A DNA stretch of 64,000 nt from Minisyncoccota bacterium (GTDB taxonomy: Bacteria > Patescibacteriota > Minisyncoccia > Phycocordibacterales > UBA9973). Position 1 is the stretch's first letter. Each line of letters opens with the position of its first letter. The translations under genes and the position numbers were made by a program. The DNA is taken from assembly GCA_041662205.1 (NCBI GenBank), contig JBAZSZ010000002.1, positions 27,957 to 91,956 of the forward strand. Reading direction: 5' to 3'. Below, piece after piece: positions 14,476 through 63,720 of the stretch. The notes beneath the pieces are model-generated. The model was not told where the DNA came from. It saw nothing but the letters and a program-made list of their open reading frames with translations, and made no database searches.

Positions 14476-15216
14476 TTATTCTATAATCTTTTTAAACTCT
14501 TCTGGTATTGGAGATTCTATTTTTATAGTTTCACCTTTAAGATTCTTAAATTCTATAGATTTCGCGTGCAAAGCTAAGCGCGAGATGCCCTTGGGGCAAG
14601 GATTATCAGGATTATAGAGAGAATCACAAGCGACAGGGTGATTTAAGAATTTCATATGCACGCGGATCTGGTGCGTCCGGCCAGTTTTAGGTCTAACTTC
14701 AATATATGTAAAATTTCCAGACAGGAGCTTATGAAAATTTTTATCGGTGTGGGAACCCTTTAGGGAGGAACCGGAAAAATTTTCATAAGCTCCTGTTTTA
14801 AATCTTTTTAATACTCTATATTGAGTTATCGCCTCTCGCATTTCTCCACGCGCTCCACGACCAGCAGAATAACGTCGAAAGTCCTTTGGACTTCTCCCGA
14901 TAGGTTTATTTATTATCCCCCGTTCATTTTTTACATTTCCCGAAACAATAGCATGATAAATCTTTTTTATTTCTCTGTTCTTAAATTGACTCTTGAGAAA
15001 TTCATGAGCTTTTTTATTTTTAGCTATCAGCATTACACCAGAAGTTCCTTTGTCTAACCTATGCACTAATTCTGCTTTTGGATATTTTTTTACAGCCCAA
15101 TCTAAAATAGTTTTTTCCTTACTGGTTTTATCGGGGTGCACCAAAATCCCCGAAGGTTTATCTATGGCTAAAATATTAGTATCCTCATATAAAATTTTTA
15201 TTTTTTCTGGCATCAT
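14476..15216 (-). CDS. RluA-family pseudouridine synthase carrying an in-frame palindromic insertion
   Basis: HRLDKGTSGVMLIAKN has the catalytic Asp, and the C-terminal PKTGRTHQIRVH motif is present. Confidence 0.85.
   Translation of the reverse strand: MMPEKIKILYEDTNILAIDKPSGILVHPDKTSKEKTILDWAVKKYPKAELVHRLDKGTSGVMLIAKNKKAHEFLKSQFKNREIKKIYHAIVSGNVKNERGIINKPIGRSPKDFRRYSAGRGARGEMREAITQYRVLKRFKTGAYENFSGSSLKGSHTDKNFHKLLSGNFTYIEVRPKTGRTHQIRVHMKFLNHPVACDSLYNPDNPCPKGISRLALHAKSIEFKNLKGETIKIESPIPEEFKKIIE
14722..14795. repeat. 74-bp palindromic element inserted in frame in the pseudouridine synthase gene
   Basis: There are perfect 21-bp inverted repeats: caggagcttatgaaaattttt and aaaaattttcataagctcctg. 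They flank a 32-bp GC-rich core. The element encodes an extra peptide, GAYENFSGSSLKGSHTDKNFHKLL. Confidence 0.7.
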
Positions 15217-17180: not shown

Positions 17181-17209
17181 TATTGCCCCGCCAAAAGCGT
17201 GGGTGTGCG

Positions 17210-17282
17210 CGGTGAGGGACTCGAACCCCCGACCTTCTCAGTGTAAATGAGTTGCTCTACCAACTGAGCTAACCGCGCATAT
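17210..17282 (-). tRNA. tRNA-Val (anticodon TAC)
   Basis: Cloverleaf on the reverse complement: acceptor GCGCGGT/ACCGCGC, anticodon loop TTTACAC and a TTCGAGT T-loop. Confidence 0.85.
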
Positions 17283-17452
17283 ATATTTATTGACAAAAGA
17301 ACTAAATAACCAACATTAAGTTAACGACCTACCAAAACAGCTAACCGCGCAAATATTTATACTTTTAAAAAAACAAATATATATTTAAACTAACATTTTT
17401 ACAACAAGGGGTCAACGTATCTATACAAATTCTTTTATGATATCATTAAAGA

Positions 17453-28023: not shown

Positions 28024-30027
28024 ATGAAAAATATATACACAAAATTTTTAATATTAAGTATCTTCGTGTTTTTTGGTTTTTTTAATATGGTAACTCCAGC
28101 TTCCGCCATGACTTGCGGCAGCGCCACTTTGACTGGAGACGTTATTACAGGTACCCCGCCTGCTCGTGCCCGATTTACCTATGGTACAGATTTTAATACT
28201 GTAGCAAATGGTGGAGGAACACCGACGACAGTCCAGACTTTTTTCTCAGACGGACCTATTCAGCAATTTATTTCTGGTCTAGCTGAAAATACCACTTACT
28301 ACTTTAGATTAGAAGTAACAAATAATTTTGGAACAGCACTTTTGAATATTAATAATTTTACCACTCCAAGTTGTCAGGTTCCAGTTCCACAAAATCCTAC
28401 CGTCACCATTTCCGCTAATCCTTCTTCTATTCAGGCTGGGCAAAGTTCTGTCTTGAGTTGGAGTTCTCAGAATGCGACTTCTTGTTCTATTTCTCAACTT
28501 GGAAGTGTTAGTCTCTCAGGAAGCCGAAGTGTTTCTCCAGCAAATACCACTACCTATACTATTACTTGTACCGGTTCTACGGGCTTGAGTGCTTCCGCTT
28601 CCGCTACTGTTTTTGTAAATCAAGTGCAACAGCAAAACCCTACCGTTAATATTTCCGCTAATCCTTCCACTATTCAAGCTGGACAGAGTTCTGTTCTAAC
28701 CTGGAATTCTCAAAATGCTAATTTTTGTTCTATCTCCCAGCTTGGTGGTAGTGTCGCTCTCTCTGGAAGTCAAACCGTTTCTCCTTCCTTTACCACTACC
28801 TATACTATTACTTGTACCGGTTCTACGGGCTTGAGTGCTTCCGCTTCCGCTACTGTTTTTGTAAATCAAGTGCAACAGCAACAGCCAACGGTTAATCTCT
28901 TTGCTAGTCCCGTAAATATTCAAACTGGACAAAACTCCACACTTTCTTGGAGTTCTAGCAACACTTCTTCTTGTTCCGCTTTCTGGACAGGTAGCACCGC
29001 TACGAGTGGCTCCGGTATTGTCGTACCAAACGTTACCACTACTTACAGTATTACCTGTTTCGGTACTAATGGACAGCAAGTTTCCGCTTCCGCTACTGTT
29101 TTTGTAAATCAAATACAACCAATTAATAATCGACCTACCGTAGTAGTTTTCTCTGACCAAGTCAGTGTACCTTTTAATGGATCAGCTACTATTCGCTGGA
29201 TCACCACTAATGCAACCTCTTGTTTTGCAAGCAATGGGTCTACCGGCTGGGCAGGAGTGAAAAGTATTGGCCCCGGAAGTTTCTTCACTGGATCCTTAAC
29301 AAGTACTAAAACTTATACACTTACATGTAGTAATAGTGTAGGATCTGACACTGATTCAGAAACCATAACCGTTCGCGCACAAACAATCAACAATCCAAGA
29401 CCTACTCCAACCTCCCTCGTACTCATCACTTCTTCTATTGATCGAAATCAACCAATAGTTCCTACTATTGATAACACGAGACCACGCCCAGGAGATGAAA
29501 TTAATTACACTGTAAGTTACCAAAATATCGGCACAGGATCGATTACCAATCTCAGATTGCAAGTAAATCTTCCTTTTGAAGTAGATTATCTATCTTCAAA
29601 TCCAAGCAACCCAACTATTTCTGGCAACACTTTGGTTTTCAACTTAGGTACGCTTCGAGCAAATGGCCAAGGCACAGTAACCATCAGAACACGAGTAAGA
29701 GAAAACATTCCTGCTGGAACAAACTTAAACTTCCCTGCTACTTTAAGCTATGTTGATCCTTCTGGTAATCCCCAATCAGTAAATGCAAATGTTTCCGCAC
29801 AAGTATTTAGCGCACCAGAAAATCAAATTGTCGTACCTCTCGGAGCAAATGTTTTCGGAGCTGGATTTCTTCCAACAAATATATTCGGCTGGCTCTTACT
29901 TCTTGCTCTCATACTTCTACTAGCATTTCTAGCTAAACACCTTTTTGATCAATCTTTCCGTAAAAAAACTACGGTGATTACTGATCAACCATCAGGTAAG
30001 AAAGTTACGACTACTACCTTAGAATAA
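28024..30027 (+). CDS. Large cell-surface protein with tandem ~81-aa Ig-like/DUF11-like repeats and a C-terminal TM anchor
   Basis: Signal peptide, then 3-4 repeats of NPTV.ISANPS.IQAGQSSVL.W.SQNA..CSISQLG...SVSP..TTTYTITC, then a TM helix (IFGWLLLLALILLLAFLA) and a basic tail. Confidence 0.75.
   Translation: MKNIYTKFLILSIFVFFGFFNMVTPASAMTCGSATLTGDVITGTPPARARFTYGTDFNTVANGGGTPTTVQTFFSDGPIQQFISGLAENTTYYFRLEVTNNFGTALLNINNFTTPSCQVPVPQNPTVTISANPSSIQAGQSSVLSWSSQNATSCSISQLGSVSLSGSRSVSPANTTTYTITCTGSTGLSASASATVFVNQVQQQNPTVNISANPSTIQAGQSSVLTWNSQNANFCSISQLGGSVALSGSQTVSPSFTTTYTITCTGSTGLSASASATVFVNQVQQQQPTVNLFASPVNIQTGQNSTLSWSSSNTSSCSAFWTGSTATSGSGIVVPNVTTTYSITCFGTNGQQVSASATVFVNQIQPINNRPTVVVFSDQVSVPFNGSATIRWITTNATSCFASNGSTGWAGVKSIGPGSFFTGSLTSTKTYTLTCSNSVGSDTDSETITVRAQTINNPRPTPTSLVLITSSIDRNQPIVPTIDNTRPRPGDEINYTVSYQNIGTGSITNLRLQVNLPFEVDYLSSNPSNPTISGNTLVFNLGTLRANGQGTVTIRTRVRENIPAGTNLNFPATLSYVDPSGNPQSVNANVSAQVFSAPENQIVVPLGANVFGAGFLPTNIFGWLLLLALILLLAFLAKHLFDQSFRKKTTVITDQPSGKKVTTTTLE
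28393..29125 (+). repeat. Three tandem ~246-bp coding repeats; units 1 and 2 share an identical 82-bp stretch
   Basis: ctatactattacttgtaccggttctacgggcttgagtgcttccgcttccgctactgtttttgtaaatcaagtgcaacagcaa occurs at both 28555-28636 and 28799-28880. Confidence 0.7.
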
Positions 30028-35843: not shown

Positions 35844-35919
35844 TTAGAAAGCCTTGCGACCAGCTACCGAGCCGAGCAGTTCGCTGGCGTAATAACGCCA
35901 GATAGATTGCTTTATAAAT
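35844..35919 (-). repeat. GC-rich ~75-nt intergenic element, copy 1, 16 nt 3' of rpsT; candidate structured RNA or REP-like element
   Basis: Near-identical to 37691-37764. Hairpin ctggcg-taataa-cgccag and shared termini ttagaaagccttgcg / gatagattgctttataaat. Confidence 0.5.
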
Positions 35920-37690: not shown

Positions 37691-37764
37691 TTAGAAAGCC
37701 TTGCGCAGCCGGGTAGGCGAGCAGTTCGCTGGCGAAGCTTCGCCAGATAGATTGCTTTATAAAT
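37691..37764 (-). repeat. GC-rich ~75-nt intergenic element, copy 2, 30 nt 3' of the TrmH-family gene
   Basis: Hairpin ctggcgaagcttcgccag. The loop and stem differ from copy 1, but pairing is preserved. Confidence 0.5.
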
Positions 37765-38292: not shown

Positions 38293-39498
38293 TTATAAAA
38301 AGTTTTTATTCCGCATATTTTTGTGATACGCGATGGCAAATCTATGTGCTTCACTGTTCGCTAATAGAATTTCCCTTTTATATTTTAATCCAAAATCCCT
38401 ATCTCCCATGATGGCTTTCGGTTTATGGCGTTCATCTTTAACTACAGAAACTACAGGGATATTTATACCCATTTTTTTTAATATATTTTTTACTACATTT
38501 ATTTGCGCCACACCACCATCTACAACTATTAAATTTGGGAACATCCATTCTCTGTGAATTAACCTCCTTTCTAAAACTTCCGCCAGCGCACCAGTATCAT
38601 TTGCTTTATTCTGAGTCTTGATCTTAAATTTTCTATATTCATTCTTTGCCACTTCTCCGTCTTCTAAAACTGTCATTACCCCAACCATATTTTTACCAGC
38701 CATATGAGCTATATCATAAGATTCAATTCTAAAATTCCCCCTCTCCTTGATAAGGAGAGGGTTGGGGTGAGGTGAATTTTTTATCAACGCTACATCATTT
38801 ATGTGCTGCAAGGCGAAGAGTTGTTTTTTTAATTCTTGTGCTTTCTCAAATTCTTTCTCTTTTGCTTTTTGCATCATCAATTTTTTCAAATCCTTTACAA
38901 TATCTTTCTTTTTACCATTAAAGAAAAGTTTCAAATATTTAATATTGTCCAAATAAATTTTACTCGGAGACAATGCATCTGGAGTTAATCCAAGTTGCTT
39001 ATAAAATTCATAATTTTGTTTTTTACTAGATTTATCATCAATGAAAGGAAAAATTTTACGTAAAATTTTTAATGCCTCATGCAACTGTGTACCGCTAGTA
39101 AATGGACCGAAGATACTACCTTTGTAATTTTTTAAAACTCTGCCTCTGACTACCAATACCCTTGGTAATTTCTCTTTTGTAATACAAACATAATTAAAAC
39201 TTTTATCATCTTTTTCTTTCGTATTGTAATATGGCTGATATTTTTTTATCAGATTCGCTTCTAAAATAATTGCTTCTAAAACAGAGTCAGTGACTTCCCA
39301 TTTTATATTATCTGATTTAAAAACCATATCTAAAACAAGCGGACCTCTGGTATTTATTAAGTCCTTACTAAAATAACTCTTTATGCGATCTCGTAGAGAC
39401 GTCGCTTTACCAATATATAAAATCTTCTTATTTTTTAAAAAAAAATATACACCGGGTTTATCTGGTAATTTCAATTTTTTTAATGTACCTATTTCCAT
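38293..39498 (-). CDS. uvrC: Excinuclease ABC subunit C, short form lacking the C-terminal HhH
   Basis: GIY-YIG N-terminus (KPGVYFFLKNKKILYIGKATSLRDR), a UVR-like helix pair and the UvrC RNase-H-like endonuclease domain (LIVVDGGVAQ). Confidence 0.8.
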   Translation of the reverse strand: MEIGTLKKLKLPDKPGVYFFLKNKKILYIGKATSLRDRIKSYFSKDLINTRGPLVLDMVFKSDNIKWEVTDSVLEAIILEANLIKKYQPYYNTKEKDDKSFNYVCITKEKLPRVLVVRGRVLKNYKGSIFGPFTSGTQLHEALKILRKIFPFIDDKSSKKQNYEFYKQLGLTPDALSPSKIYLDNIKYLKLFFNGKKKDIVKDLKKLMMQKAKEKEFEKAQELKKQLFALQHINDVALIKNSPHPNPLLIKERGNFRIESYDIAHMAGKNMVGVMTVLEDGEVAKNEYRKFKIKTQNKANDTGALAEVLERRLIHREWMFPNLIVVDGGVAQINVVKNILKKMGINIPVVSVVKDERHKPKAIMGDRDFGLKYKREILLANSEAHRFAIAYHKNMRNKNFL

Positions 39499-39504
39499 AT
39501 AATT

Positions 39505-42156
39505 TTATCTTTTCAACACTCTTTTAAGATATTTTCCAGTATAACTCTTTGCATTGTTCGCTATTTCTTCAGGCGTACCTTTGGCAACAATCTTGCCTCC
39601 ATTTACTCCACCCTCTGGGCCAATGTCTATAATATAGTCGGAGCTTTTTACAATATCAAGATTATGTTCAATCAAAACGATAGTATTCCCATGAGATACT
39701 AATTTATTTAAAACTTCCAAAAGTTTTTGCACATCATCATAATGAAGCCCCACGGTCGGCTCATCTAAAAGATAAATTGTTTTTTCTAAATGCGGTCGAT
39801 AAAGCTCACTACTAATTTTTACCCGTTGCGCTTCCCCTCCAGAGAGCGTGGTAGCTGATTGTCCGAGCTCTAAATAACCAAGGCCTACATCAGATAGAGT
39901 TTGAAGCCTGTCAGAAATTGCGGGAATATCTTTAAAAAAGATTAACCCATTTTCTACAGTCATGTGTAACACTTCATAAATATTTTTTTTCTTATATTTT
40001 ACAGTAAGCGTCTCTTTGTCAAAACGTTTTCCATTACAAACATCACAAGTCACATAAACTGTGGGTAAAAAATGCATTTCAACGGCTATTTCCCCATTAC
40101 CCTCGCAAGCTTCACATCGTCCGCCTTTTACATTAAAAGAAAAACGATTCGCTTTCCAGCCTCGCAAACGAGCTTCTTCTGTAGAAGCAAAAAGGTCCCG
40201 AATGTGCGTAAAAGCACCAGTATAAGTGACAATGTTTGAGCGTGGGGTCCTGCCAATCGGCGACTGATCAATTAAAATGACTCTTGATAAATATTCAGTT
40301 CCAGAAAAAGAAGAACAATTAAATATTTTTGCCGTACGATATTTTCTTTCAAAACGGGCTTGAAGATTTTTATAAAGAATCTCATACATTAGAGAACTTT
40401 TTCCAGAACCAGAAACTCCAGTAATAGAGGTCATCACTCCGAGTGGCACTTCTACATTTAAATTATTTATATTAAAAATATTTCCGCCTACTATGCGAAG
40501 TACGCCTTTCGGATGGCGTCGCTTATTTGGAATTTCTATTCTAGTTTCATCCCGCAAGTAACTAAGCGTACGAGAATTATTCGTATTCTTTTTTGCAGTT
40601 AATAAATCTTCAAGATAACCAGAAACAATAACTTCTCCGCCGTGCACTCCAGCCTTAGGGCCGATATCCACTATAAAATCCGAAGCATAAATAGTATCTT
40701 CGTCGTGTTCTACAATTAAGATGGTATTACCAAGATCACGCAAGTTTTGAAGGGTTTTAATCAAGCGATCATTGTCTCTTTGATGAAGTCCGATAGTCGG
40801 CTCATCTAACACATAAAGCGCACCGACGAGCCTAGAGCCAAGCTGAGAAGCTAAGCGTATACGTTGCGCTTCTCCACCAGAGAGAGTGTTTGCCTTGCGA
40901 GATAATTGCAAATAATCTAAACCCACATCCAGCATAAATTGGAGCCTGGCTTCTATCTCCTTTACCACTGGCACAGATATTTCTTTCTCTTGTTCTGAAA
41001 GTTTTAAGTTTTTAAAAAAATCGTGCGCATCTTTTATGGAAAGAGAAGATAATTCTAAAATATTTACCTTCCCCGAAACCAGGTTTAGGGACTTTTGTTT
41101 TTTGCTATCTGCCCCTAAACCTGGTTTCGGGGAAATAGAAGAATACAAAAACACATTTAGCGCTTCAGGACGTAATCGCGCTCCATGACAAACTTCACAT
41201 GGTTCATCTCCCATAAAATATTTTGAACCAAGACCGTTACATTCCGGACAGGCACCATAAGGTGAATTAAAAGAAAATAATCTAGGCTCTACTTCTGGAA
41301 AAGAAAAACCATCATTCTTGCAAGCAAATTTTGATGACATTATAAACTCTTCAGCACCAATCTTTATAGCTACCAAACCATCTGATTCAAGAAGTGCCCG
41401 TTCTAGAGCTTCAGCAAGGCGCATTCTACTATTATCTTTATTATCTTCAAACTCATGTACTGCAAAATGATCAACAAGAATATCAATATTGTGAGCTTTG
41501 TTTTTTGAAAGAGTTATTTGTTCGCGAAGCTTTTTCATTACCCCATCAAGACGAATTTCTGCAAAACCTTTTCCAAGTAAATCATAAAGTAATTGATAAT
41601 ATTCGCCCTTTCGTCCGCGCACTATCGGGGAAAAAATACTTATTTCAGTTTCATCCCATTCTACTCCCATAACTTTTTTATTTTTCTTAGAATTTTTACC
41701 TAAGGTATTAATTTTTTCTAAAACAAAATTTAAAATTTCTTCGTTAGAAAGTTTTTTAATTTCCTCACCGCACAAAGGACAATGCGGGTGCCCAATGCGT
41801 GCATACATCACTCGCAGGTAATCATAGATTTCTGTAATCGTCGCCACTGTCGAGCGTGGATTGTTTGAACGAGATTTTTGGTCAATCGAAATTGCTGGTG
41901 AAAGACCTGTGATCTCATCCACGTTAGGCTTTGGCATTTGATTCAAAAATTGTCGAGCATAAGAAGAAAGAGATTCCACATATCGGCGTTGACCTTCAGC
42001 AAAAATGGTATCAAAAGCCAGAGACGATTTTCCGGAACCAGAAACCCCAGTAATGGCTATCATCTTGTTACGTGGCATTTCCAATGAAATATTCTTCAGA
42101 TTATGCGTCCGTGCCCCTTTAACTATTATTTTATCTATATTTTGTTGATTTTTCAT
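39505..42156 (-). CDS. uvrA: Excinuclease ABC subunit A
   Basis: Two ABC ATPase modules, zinc fingers ([25 protein letters not shown]) and conserved UvrA signatures throughout. Confidence 0.95.
41067..41136. repeat. ~70-bp palindromic element inserted in frame in uvrA
   Basis: Inverted repeats ttccccgaaaccaggtttaggg(ac) and (g)cccctaaacctggtttcggggaa flank a T-rich spacer. It encodes an extra [21 protein letters not shown] segment. E. coli UvrA has no such stretch after ARLRxEA. Confidence 0.65.
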
Positions 42157-42266: not shown

Positions 42267-43343
42267 CTAATTATTTTGGTATGGAGTATATTCTATTTCA
42301 AAACCAAGCTTGGCAGCTTCCGTTTTATATTTTTCTATTAAATCATCGAGTGTTTGGGTCTTTTTATAATCAGAACCTGCTCTAGTATAACTACTAATTT
42401 TATAACCAGTTTCATTTATCCCATTCATTCCCTCAATAGTTTGAATGTATTGTTTAGAAATTTTCTCAAGTTCTACCATTGCAACTTTTTCCAGCTTTTC
42501 GCCCAAGGCATGAGTCTCTGGATTTTGTTTTAAAATTTGCATAATTTTTTCCTGATGAATACCAATTGCATATTTTTTAAATAATTCTTTTTCTTCATTT
42601 GAAAAAGACTCAGTGATTTTAGTACCTATTTCAGGAATTTTTTCAATCAGTTCTTTGTATTTCTTAAACGTCTCAGTATTTTTATCACTTACTCTGTATT
42701 CCCAGACACCAGTTGCATCAAAAACTTTTCCATTTATTTTTATTTCTTTCTCTTCAAGAGAACGGAAAATCTGGGCCATGCCCTGAAAATCAACAATACT
42801 TGGTGCCATTGGGGGTGGTTGTAATTCACCTGACTGCATCTTTTTTATTTCTTCATCATCATATCCAACACTTGAATAAACAGAAATTGGATGTGTGTGA
42901 GTTAAAAATACATCTTTAATTTTTTGTTCTTCACAAAATTTTTCTATTTCTTCTAAAGGAACTACCCCATTATCTCCATTATTTTTAAAATCATTTGGTG
43001 TAAAATAGGAATCTTCATTTTCCTTACTCAAAAAAGCCTTCTCATTTTTATCTAAAAAAACAAAACCTTTTATGATTTCAGAATTTACTGGTAAATTTTC
43101 TTTATTACTTACAGTAGCGGGTGTTTCTATAGAAACAGTAGATGAAATATTCCCTCTGTTATTTTCTCCGGGTTCTTTTGCTGTACCACTCTCCACTTGT
43201 TGTCCAGCTGCCTCACCCAAAGAACCATAAGTTAATAAAGCACTAATTAGACTAGCTCTAAGAAATTTTTTTACTGTTTCTGATATGCTCAAAGAATTTT
43301 CTGGTTTTTTTATTGGTTTTATTACAGGGAATCCTTCATTCAT
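42267..43343 (-). CDS. Hypothetical secreted/membrane-anchored protein between uvrA and uvrB, with a possible JAMM-like HxHP..S..D motif
   Basis: N-terminal hydrophobic segment and a low-complexity linker. The segment FLTHTHPISVYSSVGYDDEE resembles the HxHPx5-6Sx2-3D pattern of JAMM/MPN/RadC proteins. Confidence 0.5.
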   Translation of the reverse strand: MNEGFPVIKPIKKPENSLSISETVKKFLRASLISALLTYGSLGEAAGQQVESGTAKEPGENNRGNISSTVSIETPATVSNKENLPVNSEIIKGFVFLDKNEKAFLSKENEDSYFTPNDFKNNGDNGVVPLEEIEKFCEEQKIKDVFLTHTHPISVYSSVGYDDEEIKKMQSGELQPPPMAPSIVDFQGMAQIFRSLEEKEIKINGKVFDATGVWEYRVSDKNTETFKKYKELIEKIPEIGTKITESFSNEEKELFKKYAIGIHQEKIMQILKQNPETHALGEKLEKVAMVELEKISKQYIQTIEGMNGINETGYKISSYTRAGSDYKKTQTLDDLIEKYKTEAAKLGFEIEYTPYQNN

Positions 43344-43372: not shown

Positions 43373-45679
43373 CTATTTCTTTTCCAATTTCAAACGAAGT
43401 ACTCCAATTTCGTCTCTTAAGATCGCCGCTGTTTCAAAATCTAACTCTTTTACCGCTTTATTCATTTCTTTTTCCTTCATTTTAATTATTTTTTCGTAAA
43501 TTAAATTACCAATTTCTTCATCAGATAAATAAGACTGTCCAAGACTGGTGTTTGGTATTTTTTTATTAATTTTTTTATCTTTTTTAAATTCTTTCGCATA
43601 AGCCCGCTTGAAAACTTCTAGATCAAGCTTGAGTTCCGCATTCACCACTTTGCCATGCTCACTCTCCATTTCTTCAGTAATGTCTTTTATCTTTTTTATA
43701 ATTGTTTTCGGAGTAATGCCATGCTTTTTGTTATAAGCAAGCTGAATGTTTCTACGACGAGCAGTTTCCTTTAGAGCATAATCCATTGCTCCCGTCATGA
43801 TATCAGCATAGAGAATAACCTTTCCCTCACTATTGCGAGCTGCGCGACCAATAGTTTGGATTAAGGATGTTTCGGATCGTAAAAATCCAGCTTTATCAGC
43901 ATCCAAAATTCCAATCAGAGCAACTTCTGGCAAATCGAGCCCTTCACGCAACAGATTAACTCCGACCAAAACATCAAATTCTCCTTTTCGAAACTGAGTC
44001 AGAATTTTAATTCTATCCATCGTCTTTATATCACTATGTAAATATTCTGCTTTTATTTTTTTATCCTTCAGATAAACAGAAAGGTCTTCTGCCATTTTTT
44101 TTGTTAGTGTTGTAGCCAACACTCTGAAACCTTTTTTAATTGTTTTTTCTGTTTCACTTATAAAGTCTTGAATTTGACCAGGGTAGTGCTCAAGATGATG
44201 CTCAGAGGAGTATTCGCTACGACCAGAAAGAACTTTCCCTTCCAAGATAGAGTGCGAACGACGGCGAGTATCATCTTGAGCGCTACCTTCAGAAACGGGA
44301 CGAACTATGGTTTCTGGATCTACCAGTCCGGTTGGGCGAATTATTTGTTCTACTATTTGTTCGCTTTCTTTTCTTTCCACATCACTCGGGGTCGCACTCG
44401 TATAAATCACTGGACCAATTCGTTCTTGAAATTCCTTATATTTAAGTGGTCTATTGTCTTTGGCTGAAGGTAAACGAAAACCATATTCGACAAGAGTGTT
44501 TTTACGTGAAGCATCACCAGCGTACATTCCATTTAATTGAGGCAAAGTAACATGCGATTCATCAATAATGGTAAGGAAATCTGGAACATACTCAGAGGAG
44601 TATTCGCTACGACCAGAAAGAACTTTCCCTTCCAAGATAGAGTGCGAACGACGGCGAGCATGTTCCTGGTTTTCTACATGGGGGAAATAAGACAACAATG
44701 TCTCTGGCGGTTCACCTTCTTCTTTTCCAGATAAATGCCTAGAATAATTTTCTATCCCATTACAATATCCAACTTCTTTTATCATCGCTAAATCATAATT
44801 TGTCCTCCTTTTTATGCGCTCAGCTTCTAAAAGTTTTCCTTCTTTTTCAAATTTCTTTAACTGCTGTGCCAATTCTTTTTTAATTTCAATAAGCGCTTTT
44901 TTCTTTTTTACATCTTCTGTAATAAAATGCTTTGCTGGAAAAATAAAAATATTTTTTTCTTCTCTAATTATGCGCGAAGAAGTTGGATCAACTTTTGTTA
45001 TTTTTGAAATGCTCCCGCCAAGCATTTCAACCTGGTACATAACACTTTCAGACACTGGCATAAATTCTACCCGAGAACCAATAGAGCGAAAAGTTCCCGG
45101 ACTGAGGTCTGCATTAGTACGTTCAAAATAAATACTAATTAATTTTTTCATTAAAGTAAGGCGATCTATTTTCATTCCTATCTCAAGTTTTAAATTAACT
45201 TTTTCATATTCTTCTGGAGAACCCAAACCATAAATACAGGAAACTGAAGCTACTATTATCACATCCCGTCTTGTTAAAAGTGCTTGGGTGGAAGCATGAC
45301 GAAGCATATCTATTTCTTTATTTATAGATGCATCTTTCTCAATATAAGTATCTGAAGCGGGCACATAAGCTTCTGGTTGATAATAATCATAATAAGAAAC
45401 AAAATAATTCACCGCGGAATCTGGAAAAAATTCTCGAAACTCTTGCGCTAGCTGAGCGGCGAGAGTTTTGTTGTGGGCGATCACTAAAGTCGGTTTATTG
45501 TACTGCGCTATCACGTTCGCCATAGTAAAAGTCTTGCCTGTGCCTGTAGCTCCTAGGAGTGTCTGCTTCTTCATCCCCTTAGACAGGCCTTGCACTAATG
45601 CTGAAATAGCCTCGGGCTGATCTCCGGCAGGCTCAAAAGGTTTATGTAATTTAAAGATACTTCCTTGATTTTTCAACAT
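43373..45679 (-). CDS. uvrB: Excinuclease ABC subunit B, with two in-frame repeat insertions
   Basis: Conserved GDQPEAI, GATGTGKTFTMAN and DESH motifs plus a C-terminal UVR domain. At 768 aa it is longer than typical UvrB (~660-670 aa). Confidence 0.95.
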   Translation of the reverse strand: MLKNQGSIFKLHKPFEPAGDQPEAISALVQGLSKGMKKQTLLGATGTGKTFTMANVIAQYNKPTLVIAHNKTLAAQLAQEFREFFPDSAVNYFVSYYDYYQPEAYVPASDTYIEKDASINKEIDMLRHASTQALLTRRDVIIVASVSCIYGLGSPEEYEKVNLKLEIGMKIDRLTLMKKLISIYFERTNADLSPGTFRSIGSRVEFMPVSESVMYQVEMLGGSISKITKVDPTSSRIIREEKNIFIFPAKHFITEDVKKKKALIEIKKELAQQLKKFEKEGKLLEAERIKRRTNYDLAMIKEVGYCNGIENYSRHLSGKEEGEPPETLLSYFPHVENQEHARRRSHSILEGKVLSGRSEYSSEYVPDFLTIIDESHVTLPQLNGMYAGDASRKNTLVEYGFRLPSAKDNRPLKYKEFQERIGPVIYTSATPSDVERKESEQIVEQIIRPTGLVDPETIVRPVSEGSAQDDTRRRSHSILEGKVLSGRSEYSSEHHLEHYPGQIQDFISETEKTIKKGFRVLATTLTKKMAEDLSVYLKDKKIKAEYLHSDIKTMDRIKILTQFRKGEFDVLVGVNLLREGLDLPEVALIGILDADKAGFLRSETSLIQTIGRAARNSEGKVILYADIMTGAMDYALKETARRRNIQLAYNKKHGITPKTIIKKIKDITEEMESEHGKVVNAELKLDLEVFKRAYAKEFKKDKKINKKIPNTSLGQSYLSDEEIGNLIYEKIIKMKEKEMNKAVKELDFETAAILRDEIGVLRLKLEKK
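44191..44278. repeat. In-frame palindromic element in uvrB, copy A
   Basis: The 68-bp core (ctcagaggagtattcgctacgaccagaaagaactttcccttccaagatagagtgcgaacgacggcgag) is identical to 44591-44658. Its flanks caagatgatg / tatcatcttg are mutually inverted. It encodes RRRSHSILEGKVLSGRSEYSSE. Confidence 0.7.
44581..44669. repeat. In-frame palindromic element in uvrB, copy B
   Basis: Same 68-bp core. Its flanks ctggaacata / catgttcctgg are mutually inverted, but they differ from the copy A flanks. Confidence 0.7.
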
Positions 45680-49343: not shown

Positions 49344-51818
49344 TCATTTTACTTCCTGTAGATTGTCTCCAAAACCATAGTGTACTTCTAATGGAATGTC
49401 CGTTTTATAATGTAAATATGATTTTTGCAACACTCCCTCCATGGCCTCTTTTATTATTTTTTCAGCTTTTACTAATACACTTTCTTCCACTTCGTAAACT
49501 AATTCATCGTGGATTTGAAGTATTAAATGAACACTCTCTAATAAACCAGCTTCTTTCAGACCTTCTTCTGCATACCTGATAGCTAATTTAATAATGTCGG
49601 CTGCTGTTCCTTGGAGGGGGGCATTGGTCGCAGTCCGCTCTGCCATGTTTTTCAAAAATGGAATTCTGGAATTTATATTTGGGAAATTTCGGCATCTACC
49701 AAATAAAGTTTCAGTATAAGAATTTTTTAATACGAACTTTTTTACTTCTTCTAGATAATCCCGTACACCAGAAAATTGATTAAAATAATTATCATAGAAC
49801 TTTTGTGCCTCTTCGCGTGTTCCACCTAAGTTTTTTCTTAAAGCAGAAACTCCCATACCATAAATAATTCCAAAATTTATAACTTTGGCTTTACGTCGCA
49901 TTTCTTTGTCCACTTTTTCTATCGGTACACCGAAAACAAATGAAGCCACTCCCGCATGAATATCTTTTTTCTCATAAAAAACTTGGGTCATTTTTTTATC
50001 CCCTGAAAGCATTGCCGCTACCCGTAATTCAATCTGGCTATAGTCAAAAGCAACGAGCTTAAAACCTTTTGGTGCAATAAAACCACCTCGGATTCTCCTA
50101 CCAAGCTCTGTTTTAATTGGTAAATTTTGTAAATTAGGATCCTGTGAGGCAAACCTTCCCGTCGTGGTGCCATTTTGTAAAAATTTAGCATGTAAACGAT
50201 TACCAGCGTCTACCATTTTGGGTATAACATCAATATAAGTAGAGAGTAATTTTTGCAACTCTCGATAAAATAATATTTCTTTTATAATTGGATTTTCTTC
50301 TTCTAATTCTTCCAATACTGACACCTTGGTAGAAAATCCACCACTCGCATTTTTCTTTATTTTGTTTTTCCCTGGTGCTTTCATTCCCATTTTGCCAAAA
50401 AGCACTTCTCCTAATTGTTTAGGTGAATTTATATTAAATTCTGTGCCTGCTTGCTCATATATTTTTTTAGTCAAAATATCTAATTCTGTATGATATTCAA
50501 CTGACAATTTTTCAAAATATTTTTTATCTATTAAAATTCCATAATCTTCCATCTCTTTTACTATAGGAATAATAGGTTTTTCTATTTCTTCATAAACTTT
50601 TTCTAAATTATTTTCTTTTAATTTTTTGAAAATATATTCATAAGCTGTTTCAAAAGAGTTCGTGTGAGTAAAAAATAAAATATCTTCCAAATTTGGATTT
50701 GGAAGATCAGAATTAATGAGCCAGAGAGCGATACTAGCTTCTTGAAGTTTTTGTGGGTCTACGTTAGAAGAAGACTCCAGAGAATTTTTGAGCTGGTCTG
50801 GTTGAGCCCGCTCATTCAAAGAATCCTGTGCGGGCGACCCGAGGACCCGAGAAAATTCTGCTGGAGTCTTCTTCTCACCATTCTCAAAAAAATTTTTCAG
50901 CCGTGTTAATAAACTTCTAAATTCAAAAGTTGAAAAAACTTGTTCAATTTTTTTAAAATCTACACTTTCCCAAAAAGTTTTTGACGGCATTGTAAAATCT
51001 ATTGGTGTATCGGTTCTGATGGTCGCCAAAATCTTTGAAAACAAAGCTTCTTCTTCGTTGTGTTTAAGTAATTCAATCATCCTAGGACTGATGCCCGCTT
51101 TTTTAAAAATTTCTTCATCTTGTTTAATTTTTTTGTAAATTTCTTCAATAGTTCCAAATTTTGAAATTAAAATTTCAGCTGTTTTTTCACCAACTCCTTT
51201 TATGCCAATAATATTATCTGAAGGGTCTCCACGTAGGCCTTTATAGTCCGGTAAAAGTTTCGGCTTAAAATGAAACCGATTTACCATGGCATCTTCATCA
51301 TATAAAATAGTATCGTTGATTCCCTTTTTCAAAGTGTAAACCTGTACTTTTTTACCATCTACCAATTGCATAGTATCCATATCACCTGAGGCAATAATAA
51401 TTTTTATATTTTTATCTTTTTTATATTTCTCCACAATTGTTCCCAAAACATCATCCGCTTCAAAGCCAGGCGCATCATATATCGGTATGTCAAAAGCCTC
51501 AAAAATCTGACGGGAGTTTTTTAATTGAATTATTAAGGCATCCTCTGTCTTTGCTCGGCCTGCCTTGTATCCATCATGAGCTTCATGTCTAAAAGTTTTT
51601 TGGGGTAGGTCATAACAAGCCACAATATAATCTGGCTTTAATTCGGTAATTATTTTCATCAACATACTAGAAAGTCCATACAACGCTCCTGTCGGCTCAC
51701 CCGAAGATGACAGAAACTCTGGTAAGGCATGATACGCGCGGTGGATTATGGCATGGGCATCTAGTAATACTAAAGTTTTACTATTATTTATGTCACTATT
51801 TATTTTGGTTTTTGGCAT
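49344..51818 (-). CDS. polA: DNA polymerase I (5'-3' exonuclease plus polymerase; the 3'-5' exonuclease region is replaced by a linker)
   Basis: N-terminal 5'-nuclease fold, then polymerase motifs DYSQIELR (A), RRKAKVINFGIIYG (B) and QIHDELV (C). Confidence 0.95.
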   Translation of the reverse strand: MPKTKINSDINNSKTLVLLDAHAIIHRAYHALPEFLSSSGEPTGALYGLSSMLMKIITELKPDYIVACYDLPQKTFRHEAHDGYKAGRAKTEDALIIQLKNSRQIFEAFDIPIYDAPGFEADDVLGTIVEKYKKDKNIKIIIASGDMDTMQLVDGKKVQVYTLKKGINDTILYDEDAMVNRFHFKPKLLPDYKGLRGDPSDNIIGIKGVGEKTAEILISKFGTIEEIYKKIKQDEEIFKKAGISPRMIELLKHNEEEALFSKILATIRTDTPIDFTMPSKTFWESVDFKKIEQVFSTFEFRSLLTRLKNFFENGEKKTPAEFSRVLGSPAQDSLNERAQPDQLKNSLESSSNVDPQKLQEASIALWLINSDLPNPNLEDILFFTHTNSFETAYEYIFKKLKENNLEKVYEEIEKPIIPIVKEMEDYGILIDKKYFEKLSVEYHTELDILTKKIYEQAGTEFNINSPKQLGEVLFGKMGMKAPGKNKIKKNASGGFSTKVSVLEELEEENPIIKEILFYRELQKLLSTYIDVIPKMVDAGNRLHAKFLQNGTTTGRFASQDPNLQNLPIKTELGRRIRGGFIAPKGFKLVAFDYSQIELRVAAMLSGDKKMTQVFYEKKDIHAGVASFVFGVPIEKVDKEMRRKAKVINFGIIYGMGVSALRKNLGGTREEAQKFYDNYFNQFSGVRDYLEEVKKFVLKNSYTETLFGRCRNFPNINSRIPFLKNMAERTATNAPLQGTAADIIKLAIRYAEEGLKEAGLLESVHLILQIHDELVYEVEESVLVKAEKIIKEAMEGVLQKSYLHYKTDIPLEVHYGFGDNLQEVK
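50767..50875. repeat. ~109-bp palindromic element inserted in frame in the polA interdomain linker
   Basis: Arms gaagaagactccagagaatttt and aaaattctgctggagtcttcttc are inverted with one indel. The GC-rich core has a nested gcccgc/gcgggc inverted repeat. It encodes GEKKTPAEFSRVLGSPAQDSLNERAQPDQLKNSLESSS. Confidence 0.6.
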
Positions 51819-63069: not shown

Positions 63070-63125
63070 AGTTTCATATTATACTATTAATAAAATAGAA
63101 GGCATCTTTTAAAGCTTATTAACTC

Positions 63126-63146
63126 TGTTGATAAGCTGTGGATAAA
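63126..63146. promoter_or_regulatory. Two adjacent DnaA boxes in the dnaA/rpmH intergenic region (candidate oriC or dnaA autoregulation site)
   Basis: tgttgataa (one mismatch) and tgtggataa (perfect) are complements of TTATCCACA. They lie 57-77 nt upstream of the dnaA start. Confidence 0.5.
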
Positions 63147-63259
63147 AAACTTAACCTCTCCTAGCCTTCCCTTGTTAGGGGAGAAAGAATTCTGAAAGTC
63201 CCCTTGATAAGGGGGATTAGGGGGTTGTATTTTTATATTTTTTATTATAGACTAACTTT

Positions 63260-63394
63260 ATGTCAGTTACATACCAACCTAAAAAAAGAAAAAGAGCAAG
63301 AGCCCATGGTTTTTTAGTTAGATCTAGAATAAAGACCGGAAAAAAGGTTCTAAAAAGAAGACGCCAAAAAGGTAGAAAAAAATTGGCGGTTTAA
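63260..63394 (+). CDS. rpmH: 50S ribosomal protein L34
   Basis: My translation [44 protein letters not shown] matches the L34 pattern. The ORF is shorter than 60 aa, so it is absent from the table. Confidence 0.85.
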
Positions 63395-63396
63395 CC

Positions 63397-63720
63397 ATGC
63401 TACCTAAAAAGAATAGAGTAAACACCAAAGAAGTAGATAAAATCTTCAAGGAGGGTAGATTTCTTGTTTCTTCTAGTTTTACCTTTAAATACTTTAAAAG
63501 CGCCAATAAAGGGGTAAAAATTTCTTTTATAGCTCCAAAAAGTGTCGCCAAGCTCGCTGTTAAGAGGAATTTGCTACGACGTCGAGGATATACAGCTCTT
63601 GCCAAATATATAGATCAATTCCCTGCTGGGCTTATGGGGGTTTTTATATTTAAAAAATATCAAGACGATATTTCTATAATCAAAGATGAAATCAAGAACA
63701 TATTTAAAAAAATTAATTAG
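63397..63720 (+). CDS. rnpA: Ribonuclease P protein component
   Basis: Basic 107-aa protein immediately after rpmH. It has the RNR-like basic motif KLAVKRNLLRRR. Confidence 0.85.
   Translation: MLPKKNRVNTKEVDKIFKEGRFLVSSSFTFKYFKSANKGVKISFIAPKSVAKLAVKRNLLRRRGYTALAKYIDQFPAGLMGVFIFKKYQDDISIIKDEIKNIFKKIN

Follow-up and report, generated by a model that had tools for sequence, protein, structure and literature searches.

How a perfect palindrome came to lie within the coding sequence of a DNA repair gene, and what keeps it perfect there, are questions raised by uvrA of a Minisyncoccota bacterium, which is located in a 64,000-nucleotide (nt) stretch of contig JBAZSZ010000002.1 (GenBank assembly GCA_041662205.1, positions 27,957 to 91,956 of the forward strand; hereafter "the window"). 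An initial annotation, made from the letters of the window alone, had described a palindromic element inserted in frame in this gene. Here we show that the element is one copy of a dispersed palindromic family and that its pairing, rather than its encoded peptide, is conserved, and we propose, with a probability of about 0.7, that it is a selfish, probably mobile palindromic repeat, which survives in genes where frame, length and structure allow and is translated as a loop extension.

A perfect hairpin lies in frame within uvrA

As the window is written, two 22-nt arms at 41069-41090 (TTCCCCGAAACCAGGTTTAGGG) and 41113-41134 (CCCTAAACCTGGTTTCGGGGAA) are 100% complementary and enclose 22 nt. The outer two positions on each side of the loop can add one G.T and then a C-G pair, lengthening the stem to 24 bp and leaving a loop of 18 nt. 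This agrees closely with the initial annotation, which had put the perfect repeat at 20 bp, extending to about 24 bp with one mismatch, around a T-rich spacer inside an intact UvrA open reading frame (ORF; Table 1); the T-richness is that of the + strand, the coding (-) strand of the spacer being rich in A. The whole element comprises 66 nt, i.e. exactly 22 codons, and is in frame, corresponding to UvrA codons ~341-362. Translation of the ORF yielded the peptide as annotated and placed it, again as annotated, after the ARLRPEA motif, downstream of the zinc-finger CxxC and in the turn eight residues past the last Cys of zinc module 2. Taken alone, the 5' arm is a quasi-palindrome (CCCC-GAAACC-A-GGTTTA-GGGG). 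Of the six frames through the element three are stop-free, and the third sense-strand frame, read off the arm sequence, holds TAG and TAA. The GC content of the window is low (~34%).

The encoded UvrA is identical to protein MFA6177730.1 of a Candidatus Paceibacterota metagenome-assembled genome (186-kb contig). As the nearest homologues are labelled Paceibacterota, Nomurabacteria, Minisyncoccia or Patescibacteria, the host is a bacterium of the Candidate Phyla Radiation (CPR). Solved UvrA structures have only a GG turn at the site of the element, within ...GARLKKESLAVTIGGKNIYEV..., the correspondence being judged from flanking conserved motifs; HMMER misaligned the palindrome-encoded residues. 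The window UvrA also lacks the ~120-residue insertion domain that parts the CxxC pairs of zinc module 2 in solved structures, query residues 312-347 aligning across chain residues 305-432.

A 20-mer arm with up to three mismatches was expected 0.01 times in shuffled sequences and was seen three times in the window, counting both arms, and base composition gives an estimate of ~1e-6 for an inverted repeat of this kind (perfect over 22 nt, spacer of up to 40 nt) in 64 kb. The element folds with -45.9 kcal/mol as RNA (z = -7.9) and with -26.7 kcal/mol as DNA (z = -8.2), and in each case 0 of 200 shuffled sequences were as stable. Arm counts, fold z-scores and composition estimate thus exclude a chance origin.

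Near-identical arms recur in unrelated genes

A scan for the degenerate arm CCCKAAACCWGGTTTMGGG, with each GTDB species represented by a single genome, gave seven loci in Paceibacterota/Patescibacteria, together with chance singletons in unrelated phyla. Five of the seven loci are complete doublets with loops of 3-6 nt and arms identical or near-identical to those of the window (TTCCCCGAAACCAGGTTTAGGGG / CCCCTAAACCTGGTTTCGGGGAA): the arms of loci L017 and L019 match at 45 of 46 positions, and those of L004 and L024 have a few differences each. The doublets with window-like arms derive from three other GTDB species representatives. The further copies that the initial annotation had made a test of its claim therefore exist, in frame in unrelated Paceibacterota genes and once between genes (Table 1). 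The uvrA, LepA-like and aminotransferase copies share one frame (SPKPGLG..LNLVSGK), and the MurD-like copy uses another. The remaining two loci, L005 and L011, are single modules, each a perfect 21-nt palindrome, of which that of L011 (AAAAACCCCGAAACCTGGTTTCGGGGTTTTT) resembles a bidirectional terminator. The window copy itself does not have the features of an intrinsic terminator, since it lies in the middle of an ORF and no T-run follows the stem. We conclude that the window element is one copy of a dispersed palindromic family.

The long-loop form is found in uvrB as well, where two related genomes (L030 and L031) have 66-68-nt copies with a loop like that of their own uvrA copies. The idea that the A-rich loop represents the native TDKNKK codons of uvrA, with arms added on either side, was rejected, as these uvrB copies carry such a loop (AGATAATAAAAAAGAAAA); the loop thus belongs to the element. 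Shorter relatives, built as (A/G)AGGTCGGACCT(T/C), 10 or 11 nt and an inverted copy, occur in uvrA, uvrB, uvrC and the aminotransferase gene. The Paceibacterota DNA examined amounts to 216 kb and is biased toward the uvr loci that had been fetched; in it, 20 of 23 GC-rich hairpins with arms of at least 12 nt lie within long ORFs, and all 20 are stop-free. Their common module is CCCC-5/6 nt-N-reverse complement-GGGG, with termini TTCCCC...GGGGAA recurring across subfamilies. The inner arm sequence differs by subfamily (GAAACC, GAGGTC, TATGTC, AAAGAC) while the structure is kept, with arm self-palindrome scores mostly of 0.7-1.0 (range 0.40-1.00) and element sizes of 36-68 bp across this superfamily.

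One class-V aminotransferase gene carries two or three different palindromes of the superfamily, e.g. AGCCCCTATGTCAGACATAGGGGA-gtt-TCCCCTATGTCTGACATAGGGGCT, and a small extra hairpin, TGTCAAGG-TTAA-CCTTGACA, adjoins one of them. Three scans of viral contigs, with two-arm, single-arm and short-family patterns, gave no match. The only gene common to the window and the genomes with identical arms is 32-50% identical and belongs to no Pfam family, which makes this identity a weak measure of distance.

The uvrA site is filled, empty or occupied by other palindromes

We aligned 120 UvrA orthologues (85-91% identity, 858-939 aa). About half of them have a short empty loop (ALNVFL-TDKNKK-VNILEL), and the others carry highly diverse inserts at exactly the same turn. 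Together with the GG turn of the solved structures this demonstrates that the segment is an insertion, as had been annotated, and not conserved UvrA sequence; conservation in UvrA without the palindrome, named beforehand as the finding that would speak against an insertion, is not what the alignment shows.

At the DNA level we inspected the site in eleven orthologues (L028-L038). It is empty in L034 (ACGGACAAAAACAAGAGAGTG), and L028-L033 contain a window-type element with the same A-rich loop, GCA(A/G)AT..AAAAAACAAAAGT, between different arms. Different palindromes occupy the site in L035, L037 and L038, and L036, which is among the closest relatives of the window in the tree, has a non-palindromic, Lys-rich insert (TADVLGDNGKAHKSK). 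At least four different palindromes are thus found at this loop among the orthologues, and in a neighbour-joining tree of the 120 proteins filled orthologues are interspersed among empty ones. The turn after zinc module 2 is an insertion hot spot.

UvrA has a second hot spot after residue 154, where 39 of the 120 orthologues have 8-34 extra residues, giving symmetric-looking peptides such as KNFSGLLQPAAGTFPVQNSSS; the window UvrA is empty there. Among close relatives, UvrB lengths range from 696 to 795 aa, alongside the range of UvrA lengths given above.

Pairing is maintained, probably at the DNA level

Although DNA identity among the uvrA genes compared is no higher than 73-80%, every copy has near-perfect arms. 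In an alignment of seven orthologous uvrA copies 94% of the cells of the long helix are paired, and 12 of the 24 pairs have changed on both sides, a result reached by 0 of 500 shuffles. When the 3' partners were slid by 1-3 columns the pairing values were far lower. The 17 inner pairs are free of one-sided (wobble) changes, and in L029 both arms show a matching shortening by 2 nt. The two-fold symmetry within the arms covaries less strongly (80% of cells paired, double changes in 8 of 20 pairs). Across the arm cores of 17 copies we counted 321 Watson-Crick pairs, 0 G.T, 2 A.C and 1 other mismatch. G.U pairs are normally tolerated, and passed through, by RNA helices under selection. A DNA-level constraint or copying process therefore fits the strict, strand-symmetric Watson-Crick pairing better than an RNA-level one, which points to maintenance of the palindrome on DNA. 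Decay is seen in L004, where the outer end of one arm has two uncompensated changes relative to the orthologue in L019 (90-96% identical).

The peptide is not what is conserved. The orthologous uvrA copies encode non-conservatively varying peptides (SPKPGLG, SPRPDLG, SPRSDLW, SHRSDLW) while arm complementarity is kept, and the MurD-like copy is read in the other frame, so that the independence of codon position for which the initial annotation had proposed a test is borne out. With two frames in use and variable peptides, conservation acts on DNA, not on protein.

Relation to known palindromic elements

Rickettsia palindromic elements (RPEs; Ogata et al. 2000) insert in frame in Rickettsia genes (PMC10969869). 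Like them, the uvrA element is a palindrome in frame in a protein-coding gene and absent from orthologues; both are dispersed in small, AT-rich, gene-dense genomes, lie in frame in unrelated housekeeping genes, form several families per genome and add peptide segments at tolerated positions, the translation of our element being predicted. RPEs, however, are ~100-150 bp long and confined to Rickettsia, whereas the element has 66 bp (36-68 bp in the superfamily) and resides in CPR/Paceibacterota, forms a perfect hairpin from two quasi-palindromic modules and is conserved as DNA and not as a family-specific peptide. As judged by size and host, it is not a member of the RPE families; no sequence relatedness is evident either, although RPE consensus sequences were not directly compared.

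[quoted passage not shown] In both, two inverted short imperfect palindromes and a spacer form one long hairpin, conservation applies to the doublet as a unit, and single modules exist as well (L005 and L011 in our set). REPINs, in contrast, are extragenic, have hundreds of copies and are accompanied by a single-copy gene for a REP-associated tyrosine transposase (RAYT, a Y1 transposase), whereas here 20 of 23 hairpins lie in frame within genes, few copies are known and the 64-kb window yielded no RAYT. Its intragenic location sets the element apart from REPINs, as its copy number, low in the DNA sampled, may do; by analogy, its architecture comes closest to that of REPINs and its behaviour to that of RPEs.

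Repetitive hairpin-forming elements have also been reported in sponge mitochondria (PMC2800124). These and other GC-rich organelle hairpins (fungal double-hairpin elements, GC clusters) share with our element that short GC-rich hairpins without a transposase of their own invade AT-rich compact genomes, including coding regions, repeatedly and independently. They differ in sequence, and some are bypassed or intronic rather than translated, whereas here all intragenic copies are stop-free and in frame. [quoted passage not shown] MITEs are derived from insertion sequences (IS) and defined by terminal inverted repeats together with a target-site duplication; our element is made up of hardly anything but its inverted repeats, and as neither a target-site duplication nor a parent IS with matching ends was identified we do not assign it to MITEs. 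Literature searches combining CPR, Patescibacteria or Parcubacteria with palindromic, in-frame or hairpin elements returned no description of such elements.

Origin and persistence of the element

Compared with any of the orthologous uvrA copies, each window arm has several differing positions; the arms are closer to non-orthologous copies in other species. Since they match non-orthologous copies best, vertical descent alone at the uvrA site fails, and the window arms require either recent transposition or transfer, conversion from another copy, or a very strong constraint on one master sequence.

We propose that the uvrA copy belongs to a palindromic family of Paceibacterota (CPR) genomes that is small, selfish and non-autonomous. 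Its unit would be a REPIN-like doublet, in which two inverted quasi-palindromic modules of ~21 nt (TT-CCCC-GAAACC-N-GGTTT-A-GGGG-AA) flank a loop of either 3-6 nt or, in the A-rich form, 18-22 nt. Copies would land, or be retained, at many places in very gene-dense genomes, and survival within a gene would need a net insertion of a multiple of three, a stop-free frame and a permissive surface loop, which in uvrA may be the turn just past zinc module 2. There the element would be transcribed and translated as 22 extra residues without destroying UvrA. The perfect palindrome may persist because a single-stranded hairpin is needed by a propagation machinery, as for REP/REPIN sequences with Y1 transposases or for IS200/IS605 ends, or because arm mismatches are quickly corrected by hairpin-templated repair or template switching, and both may apply. 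Hairpin-templated correction and template switching at quasi-palindromes are well established in E. coli genetics.

Several observations weigh against a selfish mobile repeat. The uvrB copies of L030 and L031 are more similar to each other than either is to the uvrA copy of its own genome, a sequence pattern that suggests site-wise vertical inheritance, so that, considering also the non-orthologous match of the window arms, both processes seem to operate. The UvrA tree is star-like and leaves a single old gain and several gains unseparated, and one ancient insertion followed by many losses could also account for the seven copies with an A-rich loop. Exact-arm copies are few, one in the window and three in the best-sampled genome, SO_2016_GW1_104, and related subfamilies raise the number per genome. 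A metagenome scan with the two-arm pattern gave nothing beyond the contigs of SO_2016_GW1_104 already known, and a search with the encoded peptides (56-aa concatenated query) gave 124 word-sharing candidates, none at E <= 10. No transposase, integrase or HUH/Y1 enzyme was detected by a Pfam scan of nearly all ORFs of at least 90 aa in the window, whose gene content is housekeeping only (dnaA, dnaN, ruvABC, fpg, polA, uvrABC, ribosomal proteins and others). No clear target-site duplication is seen in the flanks of six copies, and in L017 it is part of the arm that is duplicated, over 9 nt. Divergence between filled and empty uvrA sites is too great for exact junctions to be defined, and an insertion or excision polymorphism was not demonstrated. 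AlphaFold2 prediction of the 883-aa UvrA from a 40-sequence alignment reached a mean predicted local distance difference test score of only 40 and a predicted template modelling score of 0.26, unusable for judging loop exposure or for a fold search. From the patterns described above we infer that the element is mobile and how it moves, that the insert is translated, that the loop is exposed at the surface and that the host draws no benefit; translation and exposure, being deduced in this way, belong among the points on the opposing side, as does the conserved G.T beside the loop, which gives a G.U pair on the sense strand only and leaves some room for a role of the RNA.

Such a role would make the element a functional hairpin in uvrA mRNA, serving as RNase III site, stabiliser or inter-domain translational pause and kept by RNA pairing. 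The very stable RNA fold, the strong covariation across the seven orthologous copies, the sense-strand position of the A-rich loop in all uvrA and uvrB copies and the G.U closing pair are in line with this, but the 324 arm-core pairs contain no G.U and the 17 inner pairs no one-sided change, identical arms recur in unrelated genes, in another frame and between genes, and half of the close orthologues lack the insert while others have unrelated palindromes at the same site. Moreover, in Rfam 15 only tRNAs of the window reach the gathering score; the element matches no family and gives only sub-threshold, generic microRNA-precursor models, on both strands. We regard this explanation as improbable, and we think no better of a host signal on the DNA, in which the symmetric arms would bind a dimeric protein (a nucleoid, segregation or repair factor) or act like a DNA-uptake signal. 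Each arm is indeed two-fold symmetric and this symmetry covaries, the TTCCCC...GGGGAA termini recur across subfamilies, arms of 22-23 nt are identical in different species, and many copies reside in the genome-maintenance genes uvrA, uvrB and uvrC, though these are the loci toward which the sampling was biased. However, an inner arm that varies freely while the structure is retained is more in keeping with recognition of structure than with a sequence-specific operator, copies are very few and presence is patchy among close relatives.

Less probable still is an adaptive extension of the protein, i.e. a functional Lys-rich UvrA loop for which the palindromic DNA is incidental or a relic of its origin. 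Many orthologues do have a hypervariable, Lys-rich loop, among them L036 with its non-palindromic insert, and added basic residues near the DNA-binding region could matter in a UvrA without the ~120-aa insertion domain; yet orthologous peptides differ non-conservatively under perfect DNA complementarity, a different gene reads the same DNA in a different frame, and orthologues with an empty site are common. Chance symmetry, or an artefact of assembly or amplification, is refuted for practical purposes, the former by the shuffling controls. Foldback artefacts do occur in amplified DNA, and the genome was assembled from a metagenome, but the repeat is interior to a 186-kb contig, in frame and surrounded by an otherwise intact gene, and an artefact is excluded as independent assemblies of different studies (from NCBI, ENA, JGI and Logan) contain the same arms in the same architecture.

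CPR bacteria (Patescibacteria) have tiny, gene-dense genomes with few recognisable mobile elements and proteins with unexplained length differences. In-frame palindromes recurring at the same loops of core repair and translation genes offer a mechanism for this length variation. If the selfish-repeat reading is true, the family would be a second bacterial case of Rickettsia-like selfish DNA inside protein-coding genes, extended to the CPR. Strict Watson-Crick compensation, which is unusually clean here, further allows one to ask how perfect palindromes persist, by hairpin-templated correction or by selection for transposition, a question that stands for REPINs too. Inserts of this kind confound both domain annotation and the alignment of orthologues in CPR genomes, and they could serve as strain-level markers. 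It is possible, if rather doubtful, that Paceibacterota, and perhaps CPR bacteria widely, host an undescribed, almost wholly intragenic superfamily of REPIN-like double palindromes of the CCCC-5/6 nt-N-reverse complement-GGGG type, which would recolonise the same permissive loops of essential proteins (UvrA, UvrB, UvrC, LepA-like, MurD-like), move between loci and species by a hairpin-dependent mechanism at the DNA level without a recognisable transposase, and be a major source of protein length variation and extra loops in these bacteria.

Other repeats and features of the window

Table 1. Location and content of the uvrA element, its relatives and other features. Positions refer to the window unless another locus is named.
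Feature	Position	Strand	Description
uvrA (host gene)	39505..42156	-	883 aa, intact; Pfam UvrA_inter and ABC_tran
5' arm of element (coding strand)	41113..41134	-	TTCCCCGAAACCAGGTTTAGGG; encodes (I)SPKPGLG
Spacer/loop of element (coding strand)	41091..41112	-	A-rich, GCAGATAGCAAAAAACAAAAGT; encodes ADSKKQK(S)
3' arm of element (coding strand)	41069..41090	-	CCCTAAACCTGGTTTCGGGGAA; encodes (S)LNLVSGK
Gap of UvrA insertion domain	41200-41290		UvrA residues ~300-325
Copy in L017			EF-Tu-type (LepA-like) GTPase gene; in frame, 18-aa peptide
Copies in L019 and L004			Class-V aminotransferase gene, orthologous copies; in frame, 18-aa peptide
Copy in L006			MurD-like ligase gene; in frame, other open frame, 17-aa peptide
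Copy in L024			Between genes; no peptide
Aminotransferase palindromes, L019	5119-5169, 5835-5879 (L019)		
Aminotransferase palindromes, L004	5482-5518, 5084-5128 (L004)		
uvrA site of L035			Different palindrome, GAGGTCGGACCTC-10 nt-GAGGTCCGACCTC
uvrA site of L037			Different palindrome, CCTCCCCCTT-ggt-AAGGGGGAGG
uvrA site of L038			Different palindrome, GTTCCCAAAAGACGGTCTTT-10 nt-AAAGACCGTCTTTGGGGAAC
uvrC	38293..39498		
ORF between uvrB and uvrA	42267-43343	-	358 aa, no Pfam match
uvrB	43373..45679	-	
81-nt units in uvrB	44198-44278, 44588-44668	-	94% identical
Arms of imperfect hairpin in uvrB	44182-44203, 44266-44287		Hairpin of ~105 nt
Intergenic 50-nt repeat	35870-35919, 37715-37764		88% identical
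Match to 50-nt repeat, L005	554-629 (L005)		91%
ORF of surface-type protein	28024..30027		667 aa, DUF11/CLIPPER-like
Tandem repeats in this ORF	28390-29119		3-4 repeats of ~243-246 nt, 79-99% identical
dnaN and dnaA	60489-63069; ~63100-63700	-	Right end of window
Inverted repeat in polA	50763-50878		AT-richer, in ORF
RluA-type pseudouridine synthase ORF	14476..15216		
Inverted repeat in this ORF	14710-14807		AT-richer
tRNA-Val	17205-17278	-	
49-nt direct repeat	17257-17305, 17329-17377		76% identical

In the window uvrA is flanked by uvrC on one side and, beyond one extra ORF, by uvrB on the other. The initial annotation had likened the element to one in uvrB, with a different sequence and the same architecture and in-frame behaviour. 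This holds in part: the window uvrB does contain a different in-frame repeat, an 81-nt unit that occurs twice, with one copy inside a long imperfect hairpin. The unit encodes ...RRRSHSILEGKVLSGRSEYSSE..., belongs to a repeat family unrelated to the uvrA element and occupies two different uvrB sites. The first of these sites has a uvrA-type palindrome in place of the 81-nt unit in L030 and L031, and uvrC of L036 encodes a related peptide (TRRHSHSVLEGKDLSGRSKDSS). The genes uvrB and uvrA are adjacent in L028, L030, L031, L032, L035, L036 and L037, and in L038 a Gp49/HTH toxin-antitoxin-like pair and a 656-aa ORF lie between them; given these differing contents the spacer seems to be an insertion site for accessory genes.

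Among the other repeats of the window, the intergenic 50-nt repeat holds the hairpin CTGGCG-6 nt-CGCCAG, recurs in a Nomurabacteria genome (L005) and could be a promoter, leader or small RNA motif. The inverted repeats in polA and the RluA-type gene have arms of 27-33 nt with 81-85% complementarity, that of polA lying in a linker of variable length relative to L036. On the + strand GC skew is negative from 1 to ~52 kb, where most genes are on the - strand; together with the location of dnaN and dnaA this probably places the window immediately to one side of the replication origin, in which case uvrA would be co-oriented with replication. Finally, the 49-nt direct repeat overlaps the 5' part of tRNA-Val and may be the remnant of a partial tRNA duplication.

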